Assembly (NCBI GenBank): GCA_964364715.1
Contig: CAYING010000003.1
Location: 3,764-67,763, forward strand
Length of the DNA: 64,000 nucleotides
Reading direction: 5' to 3'
DNA from: an uncultured Planctomycetales bacterium
Lineage (GTDB): Bacteria; Omnitrophota; Gorgyraeia; Zapsychrales; GWA2-47-8
The notes under the pieces were generated by a model. That model saw nothing but the letters and a program-made list of their open reading frames with translations, was not told where the DNA came from and did no database searches. Below, piece by piece: positions 1-37,651 of the stretch. The position numbers and the translations under genes are program-made. Every line of letters starts with the position of its first letter. Positions within the stretch are counted from its first letter, which is position 1.

Positions 1-1602
1 CGGCCTCATCAAAAGGGCCATCCCCTGCTGGGCGCGCGCTTCAACCGGCTCCGGGGTCCTCTGCTCGGGAAAAACCGCTTTATGAACTTTAAACATATCC
101 AAAGATGCTTTATACTCCCCGTCCACCGTTTTCGCAGACTTCCATGATATGTATTGAAAGATCCCGAAATCTCCCAAGGCGATCAATATCATCGCCGCGC
201 CGACGATCCATTGCGCATCTCCCAGCGATCGCGTTTCTTTTTTCCTGCCTTCGGTCAGCGCACAAAATACAGCGATCAATAAAAGCCCTGTCCCGTTCCA
301 GATCACTTTGAATGTATTCAAGTCCACCGGGATCTGCCTTATCCACTCGATCAGTGTGCGGCCGGAGACAATATTCTTTATATAAAGATCCGTCAGCCAA
401 GCTCCAGGGATCCGAAATGCATCAAACACAAAGATCAGGCCGGCCAAAAGGATCAGGATGGTCTTTATTTTTTGCCTTCCCCCCTGCTGCCAAAAATGAT
501 CCAGCCCAAACCCCGCGACGATCAAAATTAAGATATGCAAAAAATGGTACGTGTATCCGATGTGACGGTAATAAAACATCAACGGAAAATAATAAACAAG
601 GATCGCAAATATCCCGGCAAAGGACAGCCAAAGGATGCCCACCGCCGCTGAGGCAAAAGCCAGGAATATCTGCCCTCTCACTTTGAACAAGGCAAAAACA
701 AAAAAAACCAGCGTCAGGAATCCAACCGGCCGCTGAAAGATCTCCCAGCGCACGAAAGAGCCGAGGTCATAGATCCCGGCCCAGGTCAAAAACATCCCCA
801 AGCTGTTATGCCCGCCCGCATCGCGCGAACGCAGATCAACACTGACAATAAAATCTTTTAAGAGGACATAAAAACTGATGACCAGGCTGAGAAAGACGAG
901 AAAAAGCGCAAGATTGGCCCAGGACCGTTTGAACAGGCATTTAAAGACATCCTTTTGCCGCGGCCACAGGACAGCAAAAATGACCGTCAGCACAAAAAAC
1001 CACAGGCAGATATGATAGATCACCTCGCCTGTTTCCCAGAACATCACCGTGATCCCGGTCAGCCATAAATATTCCGGCTGTTTATTTTTAAAAAACATCA
1101 GCAGAAAATACGCGGCCATCGGGAACATATAAAATATGGAAAAGAAATAATACAGCTGGTAATACAGATCCGCACCGCAGGAAAAAGAAGCCAGGCAGAC
1201 GATAAAGGTTGTCGCCCGGCTGAAAAAGATCAGGCGGGAAAGTAAATACATTCCCAATAAGAATATAAATTGCTGAAAAAGAATAGAGAGTTTGAACAGC
1301 AGCAACACATTCTCAAAACGTACCACGGCCCCGATAAGCCCGGCCAGATAATTGAACGGCGTCAAGAACGCCAATTGCTCGTGGTTACTGAGAAGCCCGA
1401 AAGAATCATACGGCATCCATTGAGCGATCTCACCGTGGAAGAAAAAATTATTGTAAAAGAAATAAAACAGCTGAAAGCCGTACATCGAGTCGTGGGTCGG
1501 AACGTAAACATCCGGCAAATACGGAAGATTAATAAGGACTACGCTGAGGGCGAGAACCGCAAAATCCCAGCGCTGCAGTGTTTTTGTCAGATCTTTGAGC
1601 AT
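1..1602 (-). CDS. Large polytopic integral membrane protein, N-terminus in window and C-terminus beyond the window start (>530 aa); candidate GT-C/YfhO-like glycosyltransferase
   Basis: Manual minus-strand translation gives one uninterrupted frame from ATG at 1602 (MLKDLTKTLQRWDFAVLALSVVLINLPYLPDVYVP...) to position 1. It is rich in aromatic/aliphatic transmembrane stretches (FYMFPMAAYFLLMFF, WFFVLTVIFAVLW, ILILLAGLIFVF). It is absent from the supplied ORF track, apparently because it runs off the window edge. Its start overlaps the stop of the upstream GT2 gene by 16 nt. Confidence 0.7.
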   Translation of the reverse strand, partial: MLKDLTKTLQRWDFAVLALSVVLINLPYLPDVYVPTHDSMYGFQLFYFFYNNFFFHGEIAQWMPYDSFGLLSNHEQLAFLTPFNYLAGLIGAVVRFENVLLLFKLSILFQQFIFLLGMYLLSRLIFFSRATTFIVCLASFSCGADLYYQLYYFFSIFYMFPMAAYFLLMFFKNKQPEYLWLTGITVMFWETGEVIYHICLWFFVLTVIFAVLWPRQKDVFKCLFKRSWANLALFLVFLSLVISFYVLLKDFIVSVDLRSRDAGGHNSLGMFLTWAGIYDLGSFVRWEIFQRPVGFLTLVFFVFALFKVRGQIFLAFASAAVGILWLSFAGIFAILVYYFPLMFYYRHIGYTYHFLHILILIVAGFGLDHFWQQGGRQKIKTILILLAGLIFVFDAFRIPGAWLTDLYIKNIVSGRTLIEWIRQIPVDLNTFKVIWNGTGLLLIAVFCALTEGRKKETRSLGDAQWIVGAAMILIALGDFGIFQYISWKSAKTVDGEYKASLDMFKVHKAVFPEQRTPEPVEARAQQGMALLMRP

Positions 1603-3086
1603 ATCCGTCTTCCTGCCAGCCGGCATAACAGCCGGAAATAATTCGGCCCGGTCATCAGGATCTTGAACGACGACAAACCCATATTGGCCGAGCGGTTCAT
1701 CCAGGAGATCGGGACTTCCGCGACCTTGAATCCCATGAGCAAAGGCTTGATCCCGGTCTCGGCATTGGCCGCAAAGTCATTAAATTCTATATTAAGCTTT
1801 TCTGCGGCCTCGCGCTTCAATATTTTCAAATTATTGGTCAGGTCGCGAAAGTGCCTCCCAAGAAAAATATTTGCCAGGCAATGGAACGCGCGGTTAGCGA
1901 TGATCTTCGTGAACGGATAATTCAAAAGGACCGATTCCCGGGAAAAACGCGAGCCCACCGCCACCTCCGCCCCGTTTTTTACCGCATCAAAAAGGTCCCG
2001 CATCTCCGGGATGATCGCCCGGAAATCGCAATCCATCAGCACAATATAATCGCCTTTCGCGTTCTTAAGCCCGTCGCGCAACGCCGCCCCGACGCCGTTT
2101 ACGCCGGAACGCCTGACCAACCGCACTCGCTGATCGCGCGCCGCGGCCGTTTCCGTCATTTCCGCAGTTTTGTCCGTTGAGTTATCGTCGACAATAATGA
2201 TCTCCAGAATATAAGAATTATAAAAGTCCCGCAAACCATTGATCAGCGGCACAATGTTCATCTCTTCGTTGCGGCACGGAATGACGAAAGAAACTTTCCC
2301 TTGAAACATCGCGTGCTCGGCGAGGTCCATGACCGGAGGCTGATGATCATCCGCCGCGGAGTGCCGCGCCCAGATGAACAAGGACCCGGCAAAATTTCGG
2401 ATACCCGGACAATTTTCCATGATCAGGCTTAAATGTTGCGCCGGCCAAAGCAGGAATTTAGGAATCGGCGAATAAAGAAAATCGTACGGCAGGGCATGGA
2501 TTTGGGTAAAACCGATCTCGGAAAAAACGGAATAGATCTGCAGAAGATCCAGCGAAATAGATTCTGCCGGGCGTTTCCATTTGAACGGGAGTAATTTTTG
2601 AACAAAACGCCGCGCCCGGTAATACGGATTCCAGGGGTTCTGCTCAAACAACAATAATCCGCCGTCGGGGTTCATCAGCTTCTTGACTTCTTCCAGAAAA
2701 AGGTCCCTCACGTCGTTATTGAGCATCTGGTGGGCGACGACATAATCGAACCTTTCCTCTGCCAACTGTCCTGGAAAATCTTTCAAGAGACAGGGTTTCA
2801 CATTCTTTACGGGAGCGCTGGGCTCGAGGCGCTTCAGATATTCTTCGTCAAAAATAACCGCCGTGATCGGGCACTCATAACGGGTCGCCTTGGCCAGTTC
2901 CTTCGTGAATTTCCCGTCGCCGGCGCCGATCTCCAGGATCCTTTGCCCGGGAAGGATATGGAACAGATGCCGTGTGGTCGCCGCCCGCCAGAACATCCTT
3001 TGATCAATAAAATGATCATAATGGTCCCAATACCCCATCCTGGTTCTTTCCTGCATCGCCAGCTTCTCAGCGAGCTCTCGTCCCAT
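1587..3086 (-). CDS. Fusion protein: N-terminal class I SAM-dependent methyltransferase + C-terminal family-2 glycosyltransferase (polyprenyl-phosphate-sugar synthase-like)
   Basis: N-terminal half carries methyltransferase motif I (RILEIGAGDGKFT). C-terminal half carries GT2 signatures (KVSFVIPCRNEE, IIVDDNSTD, YIVLMDCDF, VAVGSRF). Confidence 0.8.
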   Translation of the reverse strand: MGRELAEKLAMQERTRMGYWDHYDHFIDQRMFWRAATTRHLFHILPGQRILEIGAGDGKFTKELAKATRYECPITAVIFDEEYLKRLEPSAPVKNVKPCLLKDFPGQLAEERFDYVVAHQMLNNDVRDLFLEEVKKLMNPDGGLLLFEQNPWNPYYRARRFVQKLLPFKWKRPAESISLDLLQIYSVFSEIGFTQIHALPYDFLYSPIPKFLLWPAQHLSLIMENCPGIRNFAGSLFIWARHSAADDHQPPVMDLAEHAMFQGKVSFVIPCRNEEMNIVPLINGLRDFYNSYILEIIIVDDNSTDKTAEMTETAAARDQRVRLVRRSGVNGVGAALRDGLKNAKGDYIVLMDCDFRAIIPEMRDLFDAVKNGAEVAVGSRFSRESVLLNYPFTKIIANRAFHCLANIFLGRHFRDLTNNLKILKREAAEKLNIEFNDFAANAETGIKPLLMGFKVAEVPISWMNRSANMGLSSFKILMTGPNYFRLLCRLAGRRICSKI

Positions 3087-3818
3087 CTACTTTGTCCCCC
3101 GAACCATAAAATACGGCGCGATCTTTTTTAACATTGCCTTTTTTTCCCAAGAACGCTCGACGTTCAAGAGCAGCGGAAATGCATCGATCAAAAACGGAGG
3201 AAAAAATCCGAATTGTTCATAAGCGACCTGCCGCAGATTGTTCCGCTGAAAGACGGCCTGGATATTCTCCGGCGTGCTTTTGGATTTATTTTTCTCCGCC
3301 TGCCATCCGCGGTCGAGGATCGTATCGATCATGTGCAGCGGATTCCCGGCATGCGGTTCCAAAAACGCCGCCGTCCCTCCGGTCCGTAGACACGGCAAAA
3401 GTTTTCTTAAATGATCTTCGACATCGTATAAATGGTGCAGGACATTGAACCCGATGATAAGGTCGAATTGCCCCGGAGACGGATCGAAATGATCGAGATC
3501 CGCGCAGATCAGCTCAAAACCTTTCAGATCCAACACAGCGGCATCTTCGCGGAATTTCTTGAGCATCCGTTCGGAGATATCGATCCCGGTCAGCTGGTAA
3601 CCGGATTTGATCAGCGGGATCGAATAGCGCCCGGCCCCGCAGCCGATCTCCAATATTTTCAGATCTCTCTTCAGCCCGGCAAATGCAATAAAACGCTCCA
3701 GGATATTACCTGCAAAGAATGAACGCTCCGAGAACCACATCCGCTTATGGTCCCGCTGATCATAAAATTGCTTTTGAGTTTCGTTCCAGTTTTGAATTAT
3801 CGGCTGTTCTGAAGGCAT
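3087..3818 (-). CDS. Class I SAM-dependent methyltransferase
   Basis: Motif I LEIGCGAGRYS and motif DLIIGFNVLHH. Its stop is adjacent to the start of the GT2 fusion gene (operon arrangement). Confidence 0.85.
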   Translation of the reverse strand: MPSEQPIIQNWNETQKQFYDQRDHKRMWFSERSFFAGNILERFIAFAGLKRDLKILEIGCGAGRYSIPLIKSGYQLTGIDISERMLKKFREDAAVLDLKGFELICADLDHFDPSPGQFDLIIGFNVLHHLYDVEDHLRKLLPCLRTGGTAAFLEPHAGNPLHMIDTILDRGWQAEKNKSKSTPENIQAVFQRNNLRQVAYEQFGFFPPFLIDAFPLLLNVERSWEKKAMLKKIAPYFMVRGTK

Positions 3819-3845
3819 ATCTGAAAAAATACCGTGCCAAGAAAC

Positions 3846-6557
3846 TTATAACAAAATACGAATATGGACATCCCCGTCTGCGTTAACGATCGCGGAACGG
3901 GAAATTTTAATGATGGTGCCGGATCCTTTTGCAACAGGGACAGCTGATCCGTTCAAAATGACCTCGGAGATCTGATAGTGAGGAAAGTCTTTTCGTCTCG
4001 AATTTAAATAAGCGATGTGAAGCTTTTTCCCTGCGAAATGGCACACGACACTCGCCTCGCCCTTTTTATTGAATTCTTCTTTGACCAATTTCGGGGACAG
4101 GATCAGATCGCCGCCTTCCCCGCGCACGCCGAAGGCCTGGGTCAATTGGGTCAAGACCAGCCAGCTCGCTGATCCGGTCAGATAGTGGTACATCCCTTTG
4201 CCGTTCGAATCGAAATATTCCGGGATGCCCGGATAAATCTTGCTTCGGCCGGTGTCCGCGCACATTTTAAAGATCGAATTCAAAACCTGATAACCTTCCC
4301 GGACAAACCCGCGTGAATAGAGCGCGTACGCGTACATCACGATCATATGGCTGAAAAAAGCGCCGTTCTCTTTTGTCCCGTAGGCAAAGCCGAACGCCCG
4401 CCCCAGATCAAGATAATGGTCCAAGCCGAAATCCGTGTTCAGACGGTATCCGCCGAGTTTTTTATCGCGCAGGAAACGATCCACGCTGGCAATGACATTC
4501 TTCGTTTCATTCTCATCCGCCAAGCCGCTCATCACCGCGAAGACCTGTCCGGTCAGCGTCATCCAGACGCGGCTGTCTTTCTTTCCTTCGACGCGCGCGC
4601 CGCTGTTGTCGTAGTAACCGTTGAACCAGGTGTAAGATTTTTGTTTTTCCTGAACGGAAACTTTTTCATGATGTTTGATGTGATTAAATATCCACGCCCC
4701 CTTGCGGCGGAGATCTTTCACCACGTCGGATATTTTCAATTTCTCCTGCGCCCCGCTTAACTCCGGTTGAACGCTGTTAAAATATTTTTGGCACAAAAGT
4801 TCGCGTTTAGCTTCCACTGAACCGTAATCGCACGGGGTTTCCGCCAAAGTATCCAAAAGCATTTTCAATTCCTGAGCGACAAAAACAGTGTCGATTTTAT
4901 TAACTTTGGCCAAATGCTCCAAAAGGTCAGCGATCCCGAGGAGGTTGCCGCCGTAAAAGGACATAAACGCCACACTCTCGCCGCGGTGCGGGGCCATATC
5001 GAGCCCGTCGTTCCAGTCGGCATTTTCCAAGCGCGTGATATTATGTTCGCCCACGTTAAAAAACTGCACCAAATTCTGCACAAGGATATGCTCGAGCACC
5101 GTCCCCTGATAAATGTGCCCTTCCTTGGATTTCAGTTTATTGCCGTACGCCGGATGCCAGGTGAGATCTTTTTCCTTGGCCCGGGATTGCTGGGTATCGC
5201 GAAAATAAGCGGCCTTTTCTAAAAGAAAATCATAATCCCCGGTCTGATTGATATATAAAAGGGTGGTCAGAAACGGCCAGGCGCCGTGATCCATCCAAAC
5301 GCGGGTAATCATATTACGGTCCGCGATAAATTCGCCCGGCTTGGAGCCGATGATCGTCGCGTTCGACCCGTCGATGCGCACGCCGGAGAAATTATTCAAA
5401 AGGCTTTCCCTGACGTGCTCCGGCTCGATCAAAAGCAAGGACAAAAGGTCCTGCCATAGATCGCGCCAGCCTTTGCCGCCTTTGCCGTAATCATGGTCGG
5501 GCAGATAAGAATTCCCGAAGATCCGCCGGAGGACCGGCTGTAAAGTTACCCAGCGCATCCAGGAATCGAATTCTTTATTTCCGGTCGAAAAAATAATAGA
5601 GCGGGTCTTATATTCCCAAAATGTTTTGTTGTTGATCAGGGCTTCGTCAAAATCCGCCGGGGTCTGGAATTCGCGGAACATTTTAAGCGCCTGCTCCTTG
5701 CTTTTGGCAACGCCCGACACCAGGAGATATTCACACGACTTCCCCGGCCGCAAAGTCTCATCGCTAAAACGCAGCGCCCCCGCGGCTTCTTTCCCGTCGG
5801 TCAGATTCTTAGGCAGCTTGGCGGGTTTTAAATTCTGCGCGACCGCTTTCGGCCTTGTCCACGTGCCCTCCTCCCCGCAGAAACTTTCTATCGTCGGGAA
5901 AGTCCCTGACGGTTTCTTGCCGCGGGAATTTATCCCGAACACGAAATACGCGCTGCCGCCGGCCAAATGCTCCTCTTCATTAAAAACCATCGTCGGAGCG
6001 ACTATCACCCCTTCCTTGAGCTGCTCTGTCCGCTGAAAAAGGGACGTGACGTGTTCGTGATCGTGTTTGTTCGCCAGCGCGCGGCCGAAAATGGGGACAA
6101 ACGCGGTCGGCGTGATCTTAAAAGATTTTCTCCCGCTATTTTTGACCGTCACCCGCATCAGCTCGACGGTCTCTCCGGAAATCGGGATAAAATTCACCGC
6201 CTGGATCTCCAGCCCGGCGGCCTTATGCCGGCGGATCAATTTATGCCACAGCTGTCCGGCTTCAATAGACGATTTATCTTCCTTATCGCTGGGGCAAGCT
6301 AAAGAAAAAATTCCTTTGCCGGCAACGTTCACAAAGAAATTCCTGACCGGAGTCCGCAGATCCTCGGTCGAAACCGGCTTGGTCAGGTAATGATATTTGT
6401 CGATCTTGATGTCGCCGCTCAAGTTGGGGCTGATCGAAGATTTGAGGCTGAAGGAATCGATCCCGCAGAGCGGCGCGTACACCGTGCGCAAGACCAAGGC
6501 CTTGCCGGATGTGAACGAAACTCCGTCGGGAAGATAGCTGTAAAGTTTATTTTTCAT
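3846..6557 (-). CDS. Large (903 aa) glycoside hydrolase/phosphorylase-like protein; exact family uncertain
   Basis: Long ORF with coding-like composition. Internal NADWNDGLDM and acidic motifs are reminiscent of (alpha/alpha)6-barrel glycosidases and phosphorylases. Family not assignable without a search. Confidence 0.5.
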   Translation of the reverse strand: MKNKLYSYLPDGVSFTSGKALVLRTVYAPLCGIDSFSLKSSISPNLSGDIKIDKYHYLTKPVSTEDLRTPVRNFFVNVAGKGIFSLACPSDKEDKSSIEAGQLWHKLIRRHKAAGLEIQAVNFIPISGETVELMRVTVKNSGRKSFKITPTAFVPIFGRALANKHDHEHVTSLFQRTEQLKEGVIVAPTMVFNEEEHLAGGSAYFVFGINSRGKKPSGTFPTIESFCGEEGTWTRPKAVAQNLKPAKLPKNLTDGKEAAGALRFSDETLRPGKSCEYLLVSGVAKSKEQALKMFREFQTPADFDEALINNKTFWEYKTRSIIFSTGNKEFDSWMRWVTLQPVLRRIFGNSYLPDHDYGKGGKGWRDLWQDLLSLLLIEPEHVRESLLNNFSGVRIDGSNATIIGSKPGEFIADRNMITRVWMDHGAWPFLTTLLYINQTGDYDFLLEKAAYFRDTQQSRAKEKDLTWHPAYGNKLKSKEGHIYQGTVLEHILVQNLVQFFNVGEHNITRLENADWNDGLDMAPHRGESVAFMSFYGGNLLGIADLLEHLAKVNKIDTVFVAQELKMLLDTLAETPCDYGSVEAKRELLCQKYFNSVQPELSGAQEKLKISDVVKDLRRKGAWIFNHIKHHEKVSVQEKQKSYTWFNGYYDNSGARVEGKKDSRVWMTLTGQVFAVMSGLADENETKNVIASVDRFLRDKKLGGYRLNTDFGLDHYLDLGRAFGFAYGTKENGAFFSHMIVMYAYALYSRGFVREGYQVLNSIFKMCADTGRSKIYPGIPEYFDSNGKGMYHYLTGSASWLVLTQLTQAFGVRGEGGDLILSPKLVKEEFNKKGEASVVCHFAGKKLHIAYLNSRRKDFPHYQISEVILNGSAVPVAKGSGTIIKISRSAIVNADGDVHIRILL

Positions 6558-6591
6558 TGAAAACTTATTGTATCATTTTTTCTGGAATCCG

Positions 6592-7214
6592 CTAGAAAAG
6601 AACCAAAAGATCACTCGGGTTTTGCAGCAAAAAATCCGGTTTATGTTCCGCCAGCGCGTCGCGTGAATTATAGCCCCACGTTACTGCCGCCACTTTTATT
6701 CCCAAACGTCTCGCTGCCACGACATCGCGGATCTCATCGCCGACATAAATGACCTCATCCTTCGGCAGTTTTCTTTGCCGGATCAAACTCTGAAGAGAGA
6801 TATTCTTCCCCCATATCCTGGACGTCGAATGGATGAATTCAAAAAAATCCAGCCCGTGCTGCTGCAGGACCAGCGAAACATTTTCCCGGGAATTCGACGA
6901 CAGTACCCCCATCCGGGCTCCCCGGGTTTTCAATTTTTCCAATGAATCCTTCAGCCCGTCAACAATCTCGATATTCCCGATACCTTTTTGATATTCTCTT
7001 TTCGCGCGGGCTGCAATGGCGGGGATCTTCAGTGTCGGCACATGGAGATAGGCGATGACCTCTTGAGAAGTCTTCCCTCTCAAAAACTCTATGTCCTTAG
7101 GCTCGATACGTTTATAACAAAATTCCCGGCAGATCCGGTTGCTGATCTCGCACATATACAGGTATGTATCCGCGATCGTCCCGTCAAAATCAAAAAGCAA
7201 AATGGAATTACTCA
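6592..7214 (-). CDS. HAD-superfamily hydrolase (phosphatase)
   Basis: Motif I FDFDGTIADT shortly after an internal ATG (MSNSILLFDFDGT). C-terminal motif III is VGDEIRDVVAARRLG. The track's extended N-terminus begins at a TTG at 7302 and is probably not used. Confidence 0.8.
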
Positions 7215-7380
7215 TACCGCTGTATGCTATCAATTCTTCCTCGAGATGTCTATAATTGTTTGAGTGTAAAGCATCTTTGCTGCGAATTAAGAAGCTGATC
7301 AATACTTAATTAATCATCTCCGCCGTAGAGTTCCGCACCCCTAATATCTTTTAGGTCATCAATAATAAGGATTTTCTTCA

Positions 7381-7496
7381 TCCCAATTTTCCTCTATAAA
7401 ATCCCAATTATCATTAGATGAAATTGGGATAAGTACCCCGCCAATGACGCGGGGCAGGCTTGTTACATCTAAAAATATCCAGGGAGAACAAGTACA
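7381..7496 (-). repeat. MITE-like hairpin repeat, copy A (full length, with a GC-rich nested insert)
   Basis: Sequence: CCCAATTTTCC..ATCCCAATT..AATTGGGAT..GTACC[ccccgccaatgacgcggggcaggc]TTGTTAC..AACAAGTAC. Shared with copies at 40998, 44812, 48044 and 48158. Confidence 0.8.
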
Positions 7497-7504
7497 TGGG
7501 CATT

Positions 7505-7744
7505 CTAACCGTTGATAAGCTTCACTTTTTTCTTTTTAGGCCAGCGTTTGATCTGGGCCTCGCGTTTCATGGCGCGGGATTGAGTGCGGAGTTTTGCGGT
7601 ATAGCGAAGTTCTTTGAACCCGAAGATCTTGGTGAATTTGGCGCCGCGGCCGGCCTTGTGGGCCTTCATCCGGCGTTCAACATTATTGGTAATGCCGGTG
7701 TACAATCTTCCGTCCATCGTTTCGAGAATATAGACGTACCACAT
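7505..7744 (-). CDS. GIY-YIG nuclease family protein
   Basis: WYVYILETMDGRLYTGITNNVERRMKAH matches the GIY-YIG core. An internal Met start (MWYVYIL) gives a 2-nt gap to msrA instead of a 37-nt overlap. Confidence 0.75.
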   Translation of the reverse strand: MWYVYILETMDGRLYTGITNNVERRMKAHKAGRGAKFTKIFGFKELRYTAKLRTQSRAMKREAQIKRWPKKKKVKLING

Positions 7745-7746
7745 TT

Positions 7747-8400
7747 TTAAGGGGATTTTTCTAACCTCTTCGGAAGAGGACAAACCAGAGGTTTTTTGTC
7801 CCAGGTTTCTTTAATAAAGCCTTCTCTACCGGAACCGATCCGGTACATCTTGTAATGGCCGGGCTGTTTTTTAGAATAGTCCTGGTGATATTCTTCCGCC
7901 GGATAAAATCTTGAGGCCATGCGGATCTCGGTCACGGCCGGCTTGCCGAACATCCCGCTCTTATCCAGATTTGCCTTGGATTCTTCGGCGATCTTTTCCT
8001 GTTCTTCAGTAAAATAACAAATGGCTGTCTGATATTGGGAACCGCGGTCGGCAAATTGTCCGCCCGCGTCGGTCGGGTCGATCTGCCGCCAAAAAACGTT
8101 CAAAAGTTCTTCATAAAAAATTTGCGCCGGATCGTAAGTGACCTCGACCGCTTCCAAATGTCCGGTCGCGCCGGAAGAAACTTCCGAGTAGGCCGGGTCT
8201 TGTTCATCGCCGCCGGTGTAACCGGAAACCGCGCCGACCACACCAGGCAATTCTTTAAAAACAGATTCAATGCACCAGAAACATCCGCCGGCAAAAATGG
8301 CTTTCTCAGGATCCATCGTTTTCTCCTCCTCAGCATGACCAGGGCCAATCATGTGGCACAGCAGGAACAACACTAATATAAGTTTTACTTTCATAAACAT
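7747..8400 (-). CDS. msrA: Peptide methionine sulfoxide reductase MsrA, with signal peptide
   Basis: Active-site motif GCFWC. N-terminal hydrophobic signal peptide (MFMKVKLILVLFLLCHMIG). Confidence 0.9.
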   Translation of the reverse strand: MFMKVKLILVLFLLCHMIGPGHAEEEKTMDPEKAIFAGGCFWCIESVFKELPGVVGAVSGYTGGDEQDPAYSEVSSGATGHLEAVEVTYDPAQIFYEELLNVFWRQIDPTDAGGQFADRGSQYQTAICYFTEEQEKIAEESKANLDKSGMFGKPAVTEIRMASRFYPAEEYHQDYSKKQPGHYKMYRIGSGREGFIKETWDKKPLVCPLPKRLEKSP

Positions 8401-8559: not shown

Positions 8560-10515
8560 TTAAAACTTCATCCCTTTTTTGCCTAAAACGATCAGCCCGG
8601 CCGCGACAAAAATACTTTCTGCAATCACATACAGCGCCAAAGTATTCGCTATGCCCGACGTGAAACCATATGAATGCAAACCCACGCTCAGCAAATTCAC
8701 CCCGAACCACGCCCACATCACGACGATCAGCAAAAACACACTCCCGGCCGCCATGCCGAGCGGATTGATCAATTTACTGATCCGGGCATGCAGGAGAATA
8801 GCGCACCAGAGGACGATGAGCAAAGCACCGTTCTCTTTGGGGTCCCAACCCCAAAAACGCCCCCAGGATTGGTCCGCCCAGATACCGCCCAGCGCCGTTC
8901 CCAGCAAGGTCATGGTCAATCCGAACCCGATAATGCCGAACATATTGCTAAAAGTTATTTCCAAACGCTTTTTATCATTCGGTTTACTGAGGGCCTGCAG
9001 GATATAAATATGCCCCATGATGCCGGCCACACAGCACCCCGCATAACCGATGGTGATCGAGATCACATGCGTGCTCAGCCAAAAATTCGAGTTCAGGACC
9101 GCCACCAGCATCTGCATCGTATCCCCGTCGCTGTTAAATTTTCCAGCGACGAACAACGCAACCAGCCCGGAAACACCGGAGACCACCAGCCCCATCCAAT
9201 TTTTATTCACCATCTCAAGGATAAACCCTAACAAAACACTGATCAGGCCCACAAAGATGAACGTTTCATAAAGGTTACTCACCGGCGGACGGGACATGAT
9301 CAATATCCGCAAGATCAAAGCGCCCAAATGCGGAATGAATCCCGCGGCTACGGAAAATACCGCGGCGCGGTACAGCCATTTTTTATCGGACATAAGAGAA
9401 GACAAAAACAAGATAAAAACGGCCGCATAGAAAAGCTCTGCCCAGGCGAACAAATTCAGTTTATTATAGAGAAGCTCCAGCGGAAATCTTTTCACCGCGT
9501 TCTTTTCTTTGGAAGAAAGCCGTTTACCGACGGAATCCATAAAACTCCGCCCCGCCAGGTCAAATTCAAGCTGCGATCCTGACCAATACGCAAGCGTCAT
9601 ATCACGGATGCTTTTCACTTCCGAATGATATTCCGGATCAAAATACCCGATATTGATCGTGTCCATGGGGCTCATCCACTGCTCATCGTCGTGGCTCTTG
9701 GTGGGAATGATCCCCAAGGGGCAATTGGCATAATTCTGCGTCCAGAAGAACAGGCCGTTCACTAAACCGAGAAAGACTTTATCGGCATCGGTCCAGGATT
9801 CTTTAGGCTTTCGCTCTAACGGTTCCGTGACCTTCTGTAAAGGATCCGACTTCTCAAGAATATCAAAAAAGCTGAACTCGCTTTGGTCTTTCGGCAGTTC
9901 CAGCGCCTCAAGGACCTCGGGTGTCGTGATCGTAAAATCCGGATGATGGAAACCGTAACTGAACGCCCCGGACAATTGGACATAGAGCCGGAGGTTGCTG
10001 AAAACCCGCAGCAGCTCCCGGTCGACGACAGATTGGCTCTTTTCATCGATCGCATTGGCGCTCATCGCCAGCTCTTGAAGCTTTGCGTAACCCGGTTCCA
10101 GCTGCTGATAGGAATAGCGCCTCTTTTTATCCAGCTCGATCTGCAGGGCTTCGGCGATCTCCGGGTTATTGATCAAAAAAACCTTGTCCTTGAAGGTCGT
10201 CCGCGGGGCGAATAAAAACCGCGCGAACCACACGAGCGCGGATTCTTTCTCATAATGTTTTTTCCCGGAAAGCTGGATCAAAAAACTTTCGGCATATGTA
10301 TCCAGCGGCTTGATCCGGCCCTGGTTCACAATAGGGATCCGCTTAAAGGTTTCCAGCGAATTGGCCTTTTCGGGTTTAAGATTATTGAGCGGACAAAACT
10401 GCTGAGCGGAAATGGCCTGCGGGAACAAAATCCCCAGGAAGAACAGGACTGCTATGCATCCTGCGAAGCTCAATCGAATATTTTTATTTTCCTTCATCCA
10501 CATAAGGCGATTCAA
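8560..10515 (-). CDS. ccsA: Cytochrome c biogenesis protein CcsA (system II heme-handling subunit) with a ~330-aa N-terminal periplasmic extension
   Basis: Tryptophan-rich WWD motif WGRFWGWDPKENGALL. Multiple TM helices in the C-terminal half; signal peptide plus a soluble N-terminal domain. Overlaps ccsB by 32 nt. Confidence 0.8.
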   Translation of the reverse strand: MNRLMWMKENKNIRLSFAGCIAVLFFLGILFPQAISAQQFCPLNNLKPEKANSLETFKRIPIVNQGRIKPLDTYAESFLIQLSGKKHYEKESALVWFARFLFAPRTTFKDKVFLINNPEIAEALQIELDKKRRYSYQQLEPGYAKLQELAMSANAIDEKSQSVVDRELLRVFSNLRLYVQLSGAFSYGFHHPDFTITTPEVLEALELPKDQSEFSFFDILEKSDPLQKVTEPLERKPKESWTDADKVFLGLVNGLFFWTQNYANCPLGIIPTKSHDDEQWMSPMDTINIGYFDPEYHSEVKSIRDMTLAYWSGSQLEFDLAGRSFMDSVGKRLSSKEKNAVKRFPLELLYNKLNLFAWAELFYAAVFILFLSSLMSDKKWLYRAAVFSVAAGFIPHLGALILRILIMSRPPVSNLYETFIFVGLISVLLGFILEMVNKNWMGLVVSGVSGLVALFVAGKFNSDGDTMQMLVAVLNSNFWLSTHVISITIGYAGCCVAGIMGHIYILQALSKPNDKKRLEITFSNMFGIIGFGLTMTLLGTALGGIWADQSWGRFWGWDPKENGALLIVLWCAILLHARISKLINPLGMAAGSVFLLIVVMWAWFGVNLLSVGLHSYGFTSGIANTLALYVIAESIFVAAGLIVLGKKGMKF

Positions 10516-11653
10516 ACTTTCTCTTGGAAGTAAAGGCCATCATAATAAAATGGATCGTCAGCCCCGCGAATGTGACAAAGGTCGCAATATAGGGCAAAAT
10601 CCAGCCGCCATTCTTAACGACCGCCAGCGTCGAGGCCTCGTTCCCCATCTTATCGATCTGATAAGAAGATTGGTATAAAGTAAATTCTTTATCCCGCAAA
10701 GGATTATTCATTGAGATCAATTTCTCGCGCCACGCGTTATTTGTGTTGATGGCTACCTGGCTGCTGAAGCTGCGCGGGGTATCAGTCCCCGGATATTGTT
10801 CCTTAATGAAATCAATCATTTTCAGATGGAACGGCAATTGATGCCGCGCCTGCCGCAGCATCATGGCATAATTTTTTCCGCCGGCCTTAAACGAGAACGG
10901 AGTTTCCTCACTCCCGTAAAGCATTAGGTCAAAATTTTCTCCGTCTTTCGGCTGAATAGTGAAAATTCCGCCCGGGGTGTTTTTCTCCGGCTCTTTCTCG
11001 AGGTCCGCCGGCTGCAGCCGCTGGATCCCGGAAGCGCTCAATATCTTCTTTTCATCCGCCGGGCCTGAGTAGGCCAGGCAATTCCGGTAAAAATCTTTTA
11101 CGGTCAACTTAAAGCCCAGCTGGAAAACATCAACTTCCTGCCCCGTTTTTAGGCCGCCCGCATCGATCGCCGTGACCTCGCGGGTATACTGCAGAGGCTT
11201 TTCATCTTTCCCCGCTTCCCAAACCGCGACCTCCCAATTATGGTATGCCGTCGAGACATTGGAGCTTTGGCCTTCGTATAATGTGAGAAAACTTTCCCGC
11301 GAGCTATGGAGCACAATATAACCGGATATCAAGAAAAGCATAAGGCCGAAATGGATAATGATGATGCCGATATTCCGCCATTTGTAAACCAACCGGGTCA
11401 ATGCCACACATACCAAATTAATGAACAAGACCCACATCACCAGCTGAGCCCCGGGAAAAGGGATAAATCCCAGCACCAGAAAAAAGAACGATTCGAAGAA
11501 TCTCTCCTGGGCGATGTACAAACCCTGTTGAACCTGAGCGATCGTTCCCCAATACGTGAGGATGAACAACAAGATCAAACACACGACCGCCAATTTCACG
11601 GAGGAAAGTGATTTAATGATTTTATTCTTGCGGAGTTTTTGACGGAAATTCAT
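10484..11653 (-). CDS. ccsB: Cytochrome c biogenesis protein CcsB/ResB
   Basis: N-terminal TM helix, large periplasmic domain and C-terminal TM helices, as in the ResB family. Adjacent to and overlapping ccsA. Confidence 0.75.
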   Translation of the reverse strand: MNFRQKLRKNKIIKSLSSVKLAVVCLILLFILTYWGTIAQVQQGLYIAQERFFESFFFLVLGFIPFPGAQLVMWVLFINLVCVALTRLVYKWRNIGIIIIHFGLMLFLISGYIVLHSSRESFLTLYEGQSSNVSTAYHNWEVAVWEAGKDEKPLQYTREVTAIDAGGLKTGQEVDVFQLGFKLTVKDFYRNCLAYSGPADEKKILSASGIQRLQPADLEKEPEKNTPGGIFTIQPKDGENFDLMLYGSEETPFSFKAGGKNYAMMLRQARHQLPFHLKMIDFIKEQYPGTDTPRSFSSQVAINTNNAWREKLISMNNPLRDKEFTLYQSSYQIDKMGNEASTLAVVKNGGWILPYIATFVTFAGLTIHFIMMAFTSKRKFESPYVDEGK

Positions 11654-11657
11654 TGCA

Positions 11658-12434
11658 TTATTTCAAGTGAATGGATTTAACAAAACTCTTGAGCGTATCA
11701 CGGCTGCTCAAAACCGCCGGTTTCGGGCCGGTCATTTTAACAAAAATTTGAGAACCTTCTTTTTCAATGACCGCGGCGATCATGCTCGGGGCGTCCGGCG
11801 GAGAATCATTCTGCATCTGAGTAAGGTCGATCAGGGTGACGGGCATTCCCTTGTCCGTGGAAAATTTTTCCTGGCGCTGGATAAAGCTGTCCAATTCTTT
11901 GGCATCCGGGACCGGGATCTTGATCTGCTGGATCCAGCGCGCCACGTTTGCGCTCAGCCCGCCGGCTGATCCGCCTAATGAAACGATGGTTGTTTCGGTC
12001 TTGGGGTCGGTCGAGGTAAATGTCGCCAGCCGCAATCCGCCGCCTCTTTTTTCCGACCATCCCTTGGGCGTTTCCCATTCCAGAGGAGTTTGATCGGCGG
12101 AGGCGCTGATCTGCTGCTGCAGGGCAGGATCGTTCATTCCCTGCATCATGGGAGGTATGTCTTGCTGATTAGAACCCTTTAAGCCGGCGTGGATGTCATC
12201 GTCAGGCATGAGCCCGGCGCGAACGCCATCCTGGGGCATAAGCCCGGCATGGATATCGTCTTGCGGCATACCGGAGAACATTCCTCCGGTTGGCGGGGTC
12301 ATCTTCTTAGGAGCATCCCCGAAGACTTCTGTGTATTGACGGAGTTTGGCAGGCTGTTCACATCCCAGGAACAGAACTGATGTAAGGGAAATATATAAAA
12401 ATAAAAGGCCGAACCGGCCGGAAATCTGCAGCAT
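11658..12434 (-). CDS. Lipoprotein with a tandem peptide repeat (MPxDxIHAGL x3), function unknown
   Basis: Lipobox LFLGC. DNA tandem repeat of ~30 nt at about 12180-12270 encodes MPQDDIHAGLMPQDGVRAGLMPDDDIHAGL. Confidence 0.6.
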   Translation of the reverse strand: MLQISGRFGLLFLYISLTSVLFLGCEQPAKLRQYTEVFGDAPKKMTPPTGGMFSGMPQDDIHAGLMPQDGVRAGLMPDDDIHAGLKGSNQQDIPPMMQGMNDPALQQQISASADQTPLEWETPKGWSEKRGGGLRLATFTSTDPKTETTIVSLGGSAGGLSANVARWIQQIKIPVPDAKELDSFIQRQEKFSTDKGMPVTLIDLTQMQNDSPPDAPSMIAAVIEKEGSQIFVKMTGPKPAVLSSRDTLKSFVKSIHLK

Positions 12435-12517
12435 AAAAATTTTTCTCCCGAAAGTTGGTAGTATCCTAACAAAATGCCATTAAGAATTCAACAGGAAAAG
12501 ACCTTTCCGACAAAAAT

Positions 12518-14014
12518 CTAACTCCCGGAATGGCACTCTGAACAGTGCATTTCCTTCCACCCCTCATCTGTTTCATCCGGATGGCGAAACGGAAGACCGT
12601 CCGCGTTCTTCTCAGTGGCCCCGACGGGCCCCTGTTCAATAATGGAATGGCACTGATTGCAATCCTTGGACAAAACCTTCCCGTCCGATGTCTTATGCTT
12701 CTCATCATGGCACCGGAAGCATCCCGGGAAAATAAAATGCCCGATATTATCTGGGTACGCCTTCCACGATGCCTTCATCCGGGGAAAAATATTCATCTTA
12801 TAAATTTCCAAGATCGATGCCACCGCCTGGTCGACCAAGCTCCGGTTCTGAGAAAAAAATTCCGGATATTTTTTCTGATAAAATTTCTCGATTTTTTCTT
12901 TGATCGCGGATTCTGCCGCCTCTTCGGTCTCATACTCTGCGGATAAAACCTTCAACGCCTCCCGCTTGATATACGGGATGGAGTTGTCGATCGCGCCGCG
13001 AGCCAGCACCTCGTTGAGCGTTTTGTCCGGAGAGTTGTAAATGTGCGCAGGACGGTTATGACAGTCCATGCAATCCATCTGACGCAGTTCTCCCTCCGGC
13101 GGTTTCTCCGCAGAATATTTTGAGTCCTCATCAACGTAGATGTCCTCTTTGCCGTCGGCACGGACGACTTTGATCCAGGGAATCGTTTGCCGCTTTGCAT
13201 CTGTGGCGACATAATACACCTTGCTGTTGATATTCATATGCCAATGGATCCCCTCCTTCTTTCCATACGGAGGGTTCCCGCCGCCCACCAGCATCAGCAT
13301 CCTGCTCTTCCAGGCGGTATTTTTCTCATCGGACAAAAAATAAGTTTTATCTGCTTCAATTGCGCCGAAAAACTGCTGCGGCCAATGGCACTTTTCGCAG
13401 GTCTCTTGAGCCGGACGAAGATTTTTGACCGGGGTCTCTATCGGACGGCTATATTTCTTGAAAATGACAGAATAAACCTGATATGTCCCGGCAAGTTTCG
13501 ATCTGACGTACCAATCCACCCCATGCCCGATATGACAATGAACGCACGCCACCCGGGCATGCGGTGAATTCTGATAGGTCGTGAATTCCGGATGCATGAC
13601 TTGATGGCATGTCTTCCCGCAAAACGTCACCGATTCGGTAAATTCATAAGCCCGGTAACTCCCCACCGCCGTGAACAGCAAAAACGCCGTCACAACACAG
13701 ATTGTGACATACGCGATCCTCTGATGCATGGGATTATTGAAATCAATGTGAGGAAAACGCCGGGCATGACCGCGCTTGACCCTTAGCTTGCGCTCGAGCA
13801 TGGCGCCGATGGGGATCAGCAATAAAGAAATGATGAGGAAAATCGGAGCGATTAAATACGTAACCACCCCAAGGTACGGGTTCGCCTCTTTATTGCGGAA
13901 GTCTAGAATGAAAAATACGAGAATGACGGAAAAGCAGAAGCTGGAAAGGATGCCTCCGGCGACGCTGACCCAATTTTGAAAGAGACTCGGTTGTTTATTT
14001 TCGTCGGACTGCAT
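12518..14014 (-). CDS. Membrane-anchored heptaheme cytochrome c, NapC/NrfH-like quinol dehydrogenase type
   Basis: Seven CXXCH motifs (CGKTCH, CVHCH, CEKCH, CMDCH, CFRCH, CNQCH, CSECH). N-terminal TM helices lie immediately before the first heme motif. Confidence 0.8.
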   Translation of the reverse strand: MQSDENKQPSLFQNWVSVAGGILSSFCFSVILVFFILDFRNKEANPYLGVVTYLIAPIFLIISLLLIPIGAMLERKLRVKRGHARRFPHIDFNNPMHQRIAYVTICVVTAFLLFTAVGSYRAYEFTESVTFCGKTCHQVMHPEFTTYQNSPHARVACVHCHIGHGVDWYVRSKLAGTYQVYSVIFKKYSRPIETPVKNLRPAQETCEKCHWPQQFFGAIEADKTYFLSDEKNTAWKSRMLMLVGGGNPPYGKKEGIHWHMNINSKVYYVATDAKRQTIPWIKVVRADGKEDIYVDEDSKYSAEKPPEGELRQMDCMDCHNRPAHIYNSPDKTLNEVLARGAIDNSIPYIKREALKVLSAEYETEEAAESAIKEKIEKFYQKKYPEFFSQNRSLVDQAVASILEIYKMNIFPRMKASWKAYPDNIGHFIFPGCFRCHDEKHKTSDGKVLSKDCNQCHSIIEQGPVGATEKNADGLPFRHPDETDEGWKEMHCSECHSGS

Positions 14015-14092
14015 AAAAAGAGGCCTGCTAAATTCTCGCCGGCCGCGTCAAACTGGCGGGATCGTGAAAAGGGCAGAAATTCCGCTAAAAGT

Positions 14093-15529
14093 TTATTTAT
14101 ACCGTTCCTGAAACTGCTTTTGAGCTTCAAGCCGTTTCGCCGCCTCGGCCGGATCCATTTTGTTGATATACCATTTATGGTCCGCAGATTCCAGGACTTC
14201 CGATAATTTATTTTTTAACATCTGGGCTGCTTCTGATTCTTTCTTGTCCTTGGAGTCGATGTTCTTTTCAACAATCGCCTCAAGCGCCGGGATAAATTCG
14301 GCATAGAACCTTTTGGCGACCTCGTAGGTCCCGTGCCAATGCGTATAATCCGGCCCCATCATAGACGCGCCGTGCCTTGCCCTACGCCCTTCATGATGCC
14401 ACAGCTCATACCAGATAAAATCGATCTCATTACTGAATTCTACCGGCTTCAATAATGGCTGCGCCAATTTCATCAGCTCCTGACCCGGCCTGGCAAATTT
14501 CTCAGTATACAATTCCAACAGGCTGTCATATTGCAGATAAAAGCTGTCCACATAATTGGCGCTGTGGCATTCTGTGCAGACTTTCTTCATGTTCTTCCGG
14601 CGGGTTTCCCAGGACACGTCTTTCCCGGGGAGTCCCATCTTGCCATCGGAAACTTCCGGACGGATAGAAATAGCCGGCCGATTGTTCCAACTGATACGCA
14701 TCCCGACGTCGTGGGTGACATCCATATCCGGGGTCGCGCTCATATGGCAAGTCGCGCACGTCGGAGCAGCATTATAATCTTCGCCGAGAACCCATTTCTC
14801 ATTATCTAAATTCATTTTATGTTTATTCGCATGAAAGGCAATGCCGTGCTTCGATTCTTCGTAGATCTCGATCTGCGGATGGTCCGGCCCCATATGGCAT
14901 TTTCCGCAATTCTCCGGATTTCTGGCCTGTTCAACGGAAAATTTGTGCCGGGAATGGCATGCCGAGCAGGAACCTTCGGACCCATCGGGATTGATCCGGC
15001 CGATCCCGGTATTGGGCCACGTGGCCGGGTCCAGGGAACCGTCCTTCAAAACCTTAACTTCGGAGCCGTGGCATTGCCAGCAGCCGTTAACGGCAGCGGC
15101 GGAGACACCTTCCGGAAAACCAGGCGTTTTCATCATAAGATTGCCCTCGACGATATCCGCGAGGCGATTGTCCAAGGAGCCAAGAATCCTGGCGCCTTTG
15201 GAATGGTGAGACGAATTGAATTCGTTGACCTCTTTAGCATGGCAGCGGGAGCAATCCTGAGGCGAAACAATTATGGAGATGATCTCGCCGTAATGGTCAA
15301 TGGCATCCTTATCGGATTTATCGGCCTGATGGCATTCATAACATCCGACATTGCCCCTAAAATGCTTGCTGGCACCCCACTGCTGAACGATAACGGGCGT
15401 CTCTTCCCGGTGGCATTCAAGACAATCCTTGGACTTGACCGACAACTCGTCAAGACCGTAGGCACTGCGCCATACCAGAACAAAAGTTAATAATAAAAAA
15501 CATGCCCCCGAAAAGAAATATTTTTTCAT
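14093..15529 (-). CDS. Octaheme cytochrome c, hydroxylamine oxidoreductase (HAO)-like
   Basis: Eight CXXCH motifs (CLECH, CYECH, CSRCH, CWQCH, CSACH, CGKCH, CATCH, CTECH). Size ~480 aa. The signal peptide starts at the internal Met MKKYFFSGACFLLL; the track's 50-aa N-terminal extension is rejected. Confidence 0.8.
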   Translation of the reverse strand: MKKYFFSGACFLLLTFVLVWRSAYGLDELSVKSKDCLECHREETPVIVQQWGASKHFRGNVGCYECHQADKSDKDAIDHYGEIISIIVSPQDCSRCHAKEVNEFNSSHHSKGARILGSLDNRLADIVEGNLMMKTPGFPEGVSAAAVNGCWQCHGSEVKVLKDGSLDPATWPNTGIGRINPDGSEGSCSACHSRHKFSVEQARNPENCGKCHMGPDHPQIEIYEESKHGIAFHANKHKMNLDNEKWVLGEDYNAAPTCATCHMSATPDMDVTHDVGMRISWNNRPAISIRPEVSDGKMGLPGKDVSWETRRKNMKKVCTECHSANYVDSFYLQYDSLLELYTEKFARPGQELMKLAQPLLKPVEFSNEIDFIWYELWHHEGRRARHGASMMGPDYTHWHGTYEVAKRFYAEFIPALEAIVEKNIDSKDKKESEAAQMLKNKLSEVLESADHKWYINKMDPAEAAKRLEAQKQFQERYK

Positions 15530-15572
15530 AATCGTTCCGTCCATTGTTTTCCCGTCTAAATTTCTACGATAG

Positions 15573-16130
15573 TTACTCTTTCGGCACCGGGTGCTTGATC
15601 TGTTCGAGTCTTTCCTTGAAATCAAAAGATTTATATGTCGGGGCTTCGGGGTTGTGGCATTTCTTGCAAGTATTTTCATCAGGAATTACCAGGCCCTGCG
15701 CGACCGCTTCTTCCTCATCTTCCATAACGCTTTTCTTCATATAATCCTTGCCGGCGCCGTGACAGGATTCACAGGAAACCCCTTCCTCGACGGTAATCGC
15801 CTCGGTGGCCTTTGCTTCCGTGAAATTATAAGCCGTTGAATGGCATTTCAGGCATTTGCCGCTTGTGGACGGATCATCAATACCTAACTTAGCGGCCTGC
15901 TCTTTGGCCTCCGGGGTCTTTAAGGTCTCAAACGCTTTGGCATGTTTTGACTCCTGCCAGATTTTAAACTGTTCCCCCTGCTCCGGTTTTTTATGGCACA
16001 TGGAACATTTTGTAACTCCCACAAATTCGTGTTCCGCCTGGACGGCGGACATCTCAGCGCCCCACATAAGCATAACTGCACATCCCCCAAAAACTAATAC
16101 GGCATTAATGACTGTTAAGCCTCGTTTCAT
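15573..16130 (-). CDS. Tetraheme cytochrome c
   Basis: Four CXXCH motifs (CSMCH, CLKCH, CESCH, CKKCH). N-terminal signal/anchor. Confidence 0.8.
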   Translation of the reverse strand: MKRGLTVINAVLVFGGCAVMLMWGAEMSAVQAEHEFVGVTKCSMCHKKPEQGEQFKIWQESKHAKAFETLKTPEAKEQAAKLGIDDPSTSGKCLKCHSTAYNFTEAKATEAITVEEGVSCESCHGAGKDYMKKSVMEDEEEAVAQGLVIPDENTCKKCHNPEAPTYKSFDFKERLEQIKHPVPKE

Positions 16131-35065: not shown

Positions 35066-35091
35066 AAGACAAACCGGGGCTTAAGCTCGTT

Positions 35092-35496
35092 TCAAATTTT
35101 TGCCAAGCGAAAAAATGCCAGGACGCCGATCAAGTAGGTTGTCAGGGCTAACAAAAGAACCGCATTAAATCCGTAAAACTGCGCGATAAATATCGCCAGC
35201 ATCGAACCCAAGACGCTAAATCCCGCGTTAATGCCCCAGGCCCAAGCGATGGTGGACTCATAGTTTTTGCTGATCAGCTGGAGGCCGCAAGGGAAATAAA
35301 CTCCCAGGCATATTCCAAAAGGCAATAACAGCAAACAAACCAGAAAGATACGGGCCGCGAACGGGAATCCCATAAAGCTGTCAAAGATTTGCGTACCCAT
35401 TAAGACAAAGACCAACAGCAAGAAGCCGAGAACAATTGTTGCCCCCATAATGAGCTGTGAATCGTTAAATTTTCGCTGCCAATAAGGCAGAGCCAA
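35092..35496 (-). CDS. Small polytopic membrane protein, possibly a frameshifted C-terminal continuation of the upstream gene
   Basis: Four hydrophobic helices. Overlaps the upstream ORF by 32 nt in another frame. Confidence 0.45.
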   Translation of the reverse strand: MALPYWQRKFNDSQLIMGATIVLGFLLLVFVLMGTQIFDSFMGFPFAARIFLVCLLLLPFGICLGVYFPCGLQLISKNYESTIAWAWGINAGFSVLGSMLAIFIAQFYGFNAVLLLALTTYLIGVLAFFRLAKI

Positions 35497-37558: not shown

Positions 37559-37651
37559 CCGTGTCCTTTCGATGGATGATCGCTATGATCGGTTTTATAA
37601 AAAGAGTATAAATATCATCACTCGTGAGAACAATCATTTTTTCAAATAATC

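Follow-up and report, generated by a model that had tools for sequence, protein, structure and literature searches.

A methyltransferase-glycosyltransferase fusion and a GT-C-fold membrane protein in a candidate extracytoplasmic glycosylation cassette of a probable Omnitrophota bacterium

The CsbB/YfhO(/GtcA) system and related multi-component transmembrane glycosylation systems have been described from Gram-positive bacteria (PMC5836110, PMC8035078), and together with the GtrB/GtrC and ArnC/ArnT pairs they are the closest described counterparts of the genes studied here. We analyzed a 64-kb stretch of contig CAYING010000003.1 (the window, to whose positions all unprefixed coordinates refer) and found at its left end what looks like a self-contained three-gene cassette (1..3818), comprising two methyltransferase (MT) units, one of them fused to a family 2 glycosyltransferase (GT2), and a membrane glycosyltransferase of the GT-C fold. 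The explanation that best accounts for the findings, and one that we regard as reasonably probable, is that this cassette serves extracytoplasmic glycosylation by way of a lipid-linked sugar.

The cassette shares with CsbB/YfhO, GtrB/GtrC and ArnC/ArnT a GT2 of the polyprenyl-phosphate-sugar-synthase type that lies directly upstream of, and is coupled to, a large GT-C; in addition, a C-terminal stretch of the GT-C gives a marginal match to Pfam YfhO, and an acidic residue follows the first transmembrane helix (TM1). It differs from these systems in that the GT2 carries an N-terminal MT domain and no transmembrane helices, in that a second, paralogous methyltransferase is present, in that the core of the GT-C is not recognized by the YfhO, PMT and PMT_2 models, and in that no flippase gene was found nearby. 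Furthermore, unlike the Gram-positive hosts of CsbB/YfhO, the host of the cassette is a probable member of the Omnitrophota and thus a diderm, so that teichoic acids would not be the acceptor. The dolichol-phosphate mannose synthase (DPMS) of Pyrococcus furiosus (PDB 5MLZ) has four C-terminal transmembrane helices and no MT domain, whereas the fusion ends in a single amphipathic helix, and its C-terminus is closer to those of human DPM1 and GacI than to that of the P. furiosus enzyme; GacI works with a separate membrane protein (PMC8035078). The only characterized precedent that we found for an MT-then-glycosyltransferase domain order is WsaE of Geobacillus stearothermophilus NRS 2004/3a, which, compared by domain order alone, likewise has an N-terminal O-methyltransferase followed by glycosyltransferase domain(s), but has two rhamnosyltransferase domains and elongates and caps a lipid-diphosphate-linked polymer within an ABC-transporter-dependent S-layer glycan cluster (PMC2943079). 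No described lipid-linked-sugar synthase that itself carries a methyltransferase domain was found in the literature searched. What is new relative to the known systems is the MT domain on an anchor-less synthase, the paralogous methyltransferase, the GT-C core outside the Pfam families and the diderm host.

Every gene within positions 1..8400 lies on the minus strand, and the features under discussion are the following.

6592..7302, minus strand: HAD-IA phosphatase, 236 aa (Pfam HAD_2, E 2.5e-37)
3846..6557, minus strand: GH94 laminaribiose-phosphorylase homolog, 903 aa
3087..3818, minus strand: MT243, a stand-alone class I S-adenosylmethionine (SAM) methyltransferase, 243 aa (Pfam Methyltransf_25/11/12, E ~1e-18)
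1587..3086, minus strand: MT::GT2 fusion, 499 aa (Pfam)
2352..3008, minus strand: class I SAM-methyltransferase domain of the fusion, residues ~27-245
1677..2303, minus strand: Dpm1/DPMS-type GT2 domain (GT-A fold) of the fusion, residues ~262-470
1..1602, minus strand: GT-C-fold membrane glycosyltransferase, ATG at 1602, the N-terminal 534 of 753 aa inside the window
1587..1602, minus strand: 16-nt stretch shared by the MT::GT2 gene (its end) and the GT-C gene (its start), ATGCTCAAAGATCTGA, read directly

Transcription would run from the phosphatase through GH94, MT243 and the fusion to the GT-C, the genes being separated in turn by 34, 27 and 0 nt and the last pair sharing the 16-nt overlap; the ATG of the fusion at 3086 immediately abuts the stop codon of MT243. 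The overlap implies translational coupling of the MT::GT2 and GT-C genes. Corresponding overlaps were seen among the 92 loci that we collected (numbered L001 onward), with 16 nt in L006, 4 nt in L007 and 13 nt in L011. Pattern scans revealed no convincing terminator between any of the five genes, and terminator-like sites were not commoner than in shuffled sequence. The cassette reading frames and that of GH94 are taken as real genes rather than chance open reading frames (ORFs) because each has many homologs. The original prediction, drawn from the letters of the window, had proposed a stand-alone methyltransferase, an MT::GT2 fusion, a membrane protein overlapping it by 16 nt and a large glycosidase or phosphorylase candidate; direct reading of the sequence bore out all four genes, their strand and positions, and the overlap. 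It had also ascribed the absence of the membrane gene from the ORF list to truncation at the edge, and ORFs that run off an end do indeed go unlisted.

The fusion is the element that sets this cassette apart. Methyltransferase models of Pfam match residues ~32-190 and Glycos_transf_2 matches residues 266-430 (E 2.9e-28), and the AlphaFold2 model has a pLDDT of 87.8 and a pTM of 0.86. By phmmer, the GT2 part is closest to the P. furiosus DPMS (E 6.2e-23), with which its motifs DDNSTDKT (DDxSxDxT), LMDCDF (the DxD motif) and GSRF align. The GT2 domain thus combines a GT-A fold and a DxD motif with a nearest similarity to polyprenyl-phosphate sugar synthases of the DPMS/GtrB/ArnC/CsbB type, and the expectation of a complete class I MT fold ahead of a Dpm1/ArnC-type GT2 agrees with Pfam, phmmer and the structural model alike. 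A total of 1855 homologs of the fusion were present in the protein collection, the best 120 of which showed 51-89% identity, most of them covering 92-100% of the query; the named organisms among these were Omnitrophota, Scalindua and Nitrospina, and some members are already titled by NCBI as 'bifunctional class I SAM-dependent methyltransferase/glycosyltransferase family 2 protein'. In 89 loci (56 clusters) the fusion is retained at full length, with 50-89% identity. An alignment of 38 fusion sequences gave a mean column identity of 62%, with invariant residues in the MT and GT2 domains and in the region between them. A sequencing frameshift as the source of the fusion, which the original prediction had kept in view, is ruled out by the recurrence of the same architecture in these loci and by the highly conserved linker.

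A 465-aa MT::GT2 protein at L090:344-1741 is only 24% identical to the window fusion, although the two align collinearly through both domains (E 2e-19). The L090 protein shares its cluster with a pair formed by a plain GT2 and a YfhO-like protein, and the MT-GT2 domain order accordingly occurs in more than one subfamily.

The membrane protein continues past the window edge, where its C-terminal periplasmic domain and last transmembrane helix lie. Its full-length product, P0271, comes from a 68,612-bp NCBI contig, has 753 aa and is 100% identical over the 534 aa inside the window. By structure prediction, the membrane protein is a GT-C enzyme: the model is confident, the polytopic core can be superimposed on GT-C enzymes of known structure, and every one of the 14 best PDB matches is a GT-C enzyme (251-377 residues aligned), among them AglB, ALG12, AftD, STT3B, AftA, Pmt4, ArnT and PglB. 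Sequence profiles gave a sparser picture. Neither Pfam nor NCBIfam yields a match for the 534-aa fragment or for the transmembrane core, which also falls outside the YfhO, PMT and PMT_2 models, and a sequence-profile search of all PDB chains with the profile of the GT-C family returned chance-level matches alone (E >1). The family itself is large, with 794 representative clusters at 50% identity (HMMER) and full-length members mostly of 740-800 aa. P0271 scores 30.6 bits against Pfam YfhO (PF09586; cut-off 28.5), solely through residues 646-713 (profile positions 758-824 of 835). Of 49 family members, 41 match the YfhO model at E <=0.01, and the matched stretch was C-terminal where examined (P0271, L006 and L007). 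Membership in YfhO is hence marginal by sequence and rests on the C-terminal module past the window edge. Of the proposed 'GT-C/YfhO appearance', the GT-C part is upheld by the fold, and the YfhO part is reduced to a C-terminal stretch of ~68 aa with a marginal score and an unmatched core.

GT-C enzymes carry a catalytic acid right after TM1, and a candidate for this role was found at the same place. Asp38, in a P-x-H-D-(S/T) motif (codon 1489..1491), is conserved in at least 90% of 49 family members and opens helix 37-56, the first periplasmic helix, right after TM1 (residues 12-28); K3, K7 and R11 are consistent with a cytoplasmic start of the chain. A further polytopic membrane protein of ~570 aa is encoded 3' of the GT-C gene at L006:13665-14930 and L011:9772-11484, and presumably also just past the left edge of the window. 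The two copies are 39% identical (E 6e-94), have a common DPSYIYL...VDHPGTT segment and show a weak DUF6056 match; the protein may act as another enzyme of GT-C type or as a partner that binds the acceptor.

Two methyltransferase units precede the GT2 domain. The fused MT has a complete Rossmann-like fold near those of active small-molecule methyltransferases, with a conserved glycine-rich motif I (LEIGAGDG) and a conserved D114 in the 38-sequence alignment. Many further residues are unchanged over several phyla, including the invariant positions in NPWNP and YDF, which argue for a specific substrate site. The stand-alone MT243 is also a class I enzyme by Pfam and has, at the end of strand beta-2, the acidic residue with which such enzymes bind the ribose of SAM (GIDIS). 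It is 24% identical to the fused MT domain over 216 collinear residues (E 1e-6), in an alignment that takes in the N-terminal helix, motif I, a '(L/F)E(P/Q)..NP' segment past strand 5 and a C-terminal hydrophobic segment, and this collinearity marks MT243 as a distant paralog of the fused domain.

The context of the cassette in relatives was scored with hidden Markov models (HMMs) of the neighboring genes. The order MT243, MT::GT2, GT-C recurs in L001 (Hainich groundwater, a 2.3-kb contig, identical to the window), L006 (the closest relative, 84% identity), L007/L008 (Omnitrophica WOR_2, 65% identity) and L011, with MT243 orthologs directly upstream of the fusion in each; L076 and L091 keep the MT::GT2 and GT-C pair and lack the small methyltransferase. 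A scan of genome contigs with a single fusion protein recovered one locus, L007. The flanks outside the cassette are wholly different, being a nonulosonic-acid/polysaccharide cluster in L007, peptidoglycan-recycling genes in L011 and V-type ATPase and housekeeping genes in L076 and L091. More distant relatives of the GT-C occur in L090 (40% identical) and L092 (35%), each with a plain GT2 of 310-314 aa directly upstream, which is a canonical CsbB/YfhO-type pair; the surroundings of these two hold NTP-transferase, short-chain dehydrogenase/reductase (SDR), DegT aminotransferase and acetyltransferase genes and, in L092, a B12-binding radical-SAM gene. A GT2, plain or MT-fused, stands directly upstream of the GT-C in all ten non-identical loci examined (window/L001, L006, L007/8, L011, L076, L091, L090 and L092). 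This conserved order lends support to the logic of polyprenyl-phosphate-sugar-dependent glycosylation, GT2 first and GT-C second, that had been put forward for the locus.

From the domain identities, folds, conserved motifs and conserved gene order described above, we infer a polyprenyl-phosphate acceptor, a methylation target, a flipping step and a final acceptor as follows. First, the GT2 domain of the fusion would act at the cytoplasmic face, where it would take a sugar from its nucleotide-activated form and attach it to polyprenyl phosphate in the manner of DPMS, GtrB, ArnC and CsbB. Second, the fused MT and MT243 would add one or two methyl groups from SAM, most likely to the sugar, either as the nucleotide sugar or in its lipid-bound form. 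Third, the lipid-linked (methyl-)sugar would be flipped by a flippase encoded away from the cassette. Fourth, the 753-aa GT-C would transfer the sugar in the periplasm to a surface acceptor, which may be lipopolysaccharide, another glycan or a protein, through Asp38 in the first periplasmic loop.

Several observations weigh against this scheme, and each is taken here with the alternative on which it bears. The literature searched contained no experiment or paper on the MT::GT2 family, and none on methylated polyprenyl-phosphate sugars or on a radical-SAM link, and yielded just general reviews and WsaE. No GtrA- or Wzx-type flippase lies beside the cassette, and the sole small polytopic ORF of the window (35092..35496, 134 aa) has no Pfam match; flippases are often unlinked in such systems (PMC8035078). 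In addition, the model of the fusion contains no transmembrane helix, unlike DPMS, GtrB and ArnC, and has amphipathic helices alone, at residues 392-409 and 476-495. GT-A enzymes that have no membrane anchor of their own and use a partner belong to the general scheme of these systems (PMC8035078). In Nitrospina watsonii, a 182-aa hydrophobic protein with a faint cytochrome b561-like match is encoded directly 3' of the MT::GT2 gene with a 0-nt gap (L002:11540-12088); this protein may serve the anchor-less synthase of that lineage as its membrane partner.

The lack of transmembrane helices would also suit a capping or elongating enzyme like WsaE, which would add a sugar to a cytoplasmic lipid-diphosphate glycan and O-methylate it to terminate the chain, the GT-C then being a ligase, an oligosaccharyltransferase or a polymerase. 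WsaE itself has an N-terminal MT domain before its glycosyltransferase domains and methylates the terminal rhamnose (PMC2943079), and MT243 is weakly similar to the chain terminator WbdD. We nevertheless consider this alternative unlikely. The closest matches of the GT2 are DPMS and ArnC, synthases of polyprenyl-monophosphate sugars, and not polymer-elongating GT2s; the window, L011, L076 and L091 show neither Wzm/Wzt, Wzx/Wzy, an initiating phosphoglycosyltransferase nor further glycosyltransferase genes with the cassette; and other GT-Cs of this family stand beside plain 310-aa GT2s as classical two-gene pairs.

The fused MT raises a further doubt. The canonical acidic residue at the end of strand beta-2 is not conserved there, the position being D, S or N across the family, and SAM binding by this domain is consequently an assumption. 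Taken with a GT2 that has no anchor of its own, this could mean that the fused MT is catalytically dead and has become a structural, oligomerization or membrane-docking module that replaces the missing transmembrane helices of the GT2. Such a role seems highly improbable to us, as motif I and D114 are conserved, many more MT residues are invariant over several phyla, and the fold is complete and close to those of active small-molecule methyltransferases.

The neighbors of the fusion in the wider family are the last of the observations that speak against the proposed scheme. Counted over the 56 clusters of MT::GT2 loci (90% identity), with adjacent genes on the same strand considered, the neighbors of the fusion were as follows.

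B12-binding radical-SAM protein: 38 of 56 clusters
SDR epimerase/dehydratase: 20 of 56 clusters
MT243-like methyltransferase: 11 of 56 clusters
YfhO-like GT-C: 5 of 56 clusters
PMT-like GT-C (Scalindua): 1 of 56 clusters

The usual neighbor of MT::GT2 is thus a B12-radical-SAM gene and not a GT-C (38 versus 6 clusters), which suggests that the product of the fusion may serve other fates. The radical-SAM neighbors were seen across loci L002, L004, L010 and L012-L089 (for example L002:8447-9988, L004:12272-13684 and L089:9568-11022), and the clusters that have one include Nitrospina watsonii, Scalindua and an Omnitrophota metagenome-assembled genome; in loci of the Nitrospina type the radical-SAM gene is upstream of the fusion, in those of the Scalindua type it is downstream, and an SDR gene often goes with it. 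The NCBIfam matches of these proteins, to HpnJ, BchE and P-/C-methyltransferases for the radical-SAM protein and to GalE and RmlB for the SDR, are far below the cut-offs and so give no clue to the identity of the sugar.

Hopanoid cyclitol ethers are built by the GT2 HpnI together with the radical-SAM protein HpnJ. By analogy, the conserved job of MT::GT2 might lie in a B12-radical-SAM pathway that makes a C-methylated or rearranged sugar or lipid head group, with the GT-C link a secondary recruitment and, for the present bacterium, the radical-SAM partner elsewhere in the genome. The frequency of radical-SAM neighbors on the same strand, their sub-threshold matches to the HpnJ, BchE and P-/C-methyltransferase families, and the presence of both a radical-SAM gene and a YfhO-like GT-C in L010 and L092 all favor this idea. 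For the cassette described here we hold it doubtful: the 64-kb window contains no homolog of these radical-SAM proteins (nor a second GT-C of the family, nor a PMT-like protein), none adjoins the fusion in the GT-C-linked loci L006, L007, L011, L076 and L091, and the subclade of the window evidently manages without an adjacent radical-SAM gene. The radical-SAM pathway is compatible with glycosylation through a lipid-linked sugar and does not exclude it.

The 903-aa protein had been proposed as a glycosidase or phosphorylase component of the system, and this membership did not survive. phmmer aligned its residues 27-898 with residues 29-902 of the laminaribiose phosphorylase of Paenibacillus sp. 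YM-1 (PDB 6GGY; E 5.4e-276, 921 bits), the segments ADWNDGLD, RGWRDLWQD and LTGSASW are identical in the two, and Pfam recognizes the GH94 catalytic and supersandwich domains; no NCBIfam model matched, and cellobiose and chitobiose phosphorylases were far weaker matches (~E 1e-19). The protein differs from 6GGY in nothing notable, and with specificity assigned by sequence it is predicted to be an ordinary cytoplasmic catabolic GH94 laminaribiose phosphorylase. The HAD-IA phosphatase, whose NCBIfam match is phosphoglycolate-phosphatase-like and below cut-off, is paired with GH94 both in the window and in L006, and the two putatively form an ordinary catabolic pair of their own for the phosphorolysis of beta-1,3-glucobiose. 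GH94 was excluded from the cassette because of the laminaribiose phosphorylase homology and because its context is not conserved.

The fuller version of the original prediction would have GH94 and the phosphatase work with the cassette, for instance in supplying glucose-1-phosphate toward the donor sugar or trimming the product glycan. It gains something from the co-directional run from the phosphatase to the GT-C, with its short gaps, its overlap and no convincing terminator between, and from the presence of GH94 at most 5 kb upstream of the cassette in L006 too. We judge it very unlikely all the same, given a full-length close homolog of a cytoplasmic catabolic enzyme, an OEP outer-membrane factor and a resistance-nodulation-division (RND) pump (ACR_tran) that intervene in L006 (L006:4888-9238), and the finding of no GH94 near the cassette in L007/8, L011, L076, L091 or other fusion loci examined, which leaves L006 as the only relative with this adjacency. 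The OEP and RND pair is absent at the matching place in the window, and this difference indicates a recent insertion or deletion. The reading of the 903-aa protein as a glycosidase is a false lead that is now removed.

Other genes of the window were recorded as well. On the minus strand, MsrA is encoded at 7747-8400, and the stretch 8560-15679 holds a cytochrome c maturation pair (ResB-like, 10484-11653, and CcsA-like, 8560-10515) beside two multihaem cytochromes (12518-14014, NapC/NirT-like, and 14093-15679, multi-haem). A 679-aa ORF at 21273-23312 has no Pfam match. A pyruvate:ferredoxin oxidoreductase of 1191 aa (27670-31245, minus strand) and a molybdopterin oxidoreductase of 1085 aa (55754-59011, minus strand) are consistent with an anaerobic groundwater bacterium. 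In addition, a run of large genes at 33317-39460 (minus strand), in strongly positive AT skew (~0.25), encodes a 582-aa protein with C-terminal tetratricopeptide repeats, the 134-aa polytopic protein, a 697-aa protein without a Pfam match and a 602-aa DUF2079 membrane protein, and may be another envelope-glycan module.

The lipid-linked monosaccharide donors known for GT-C enzymes are mannose, glucose, GlcNAc, Ara4N, arabinofuranose and a few others. At >50% identity, the full-length fusion occurs in Omnitrophota, in Nitrospinota (Nitrospina watsonii) and in marine anammox Planctomycetota (Scalindua), as well as in many metagenome lineages of marine and groundwater origin. We raise, tentatively, the possibility that the MT::GT2 family defines a widespread and unstudied pathway to a novel type of lipid-linked donor, in which a SAM-methylated polyprenyl-phosphate sugar would in most lineages be further C-methylated or rearranged by an adjacent B12-radical-SAM protein and would be placed on the surface by GT-Cs, YfhO-like here and PMT-like in Scalindua. 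Should the fused and stand-alone methyltransferases work on the nucleotide sugar or on its lipid-linked form, a single step could suffice to attach methylated sugars outside the cytoplasm, and the family would be a marker of this kind of surface modification in Omnitrophota, Nitrospinota and anammox bacteria, environmentally important phyla that are mostly uncultured.

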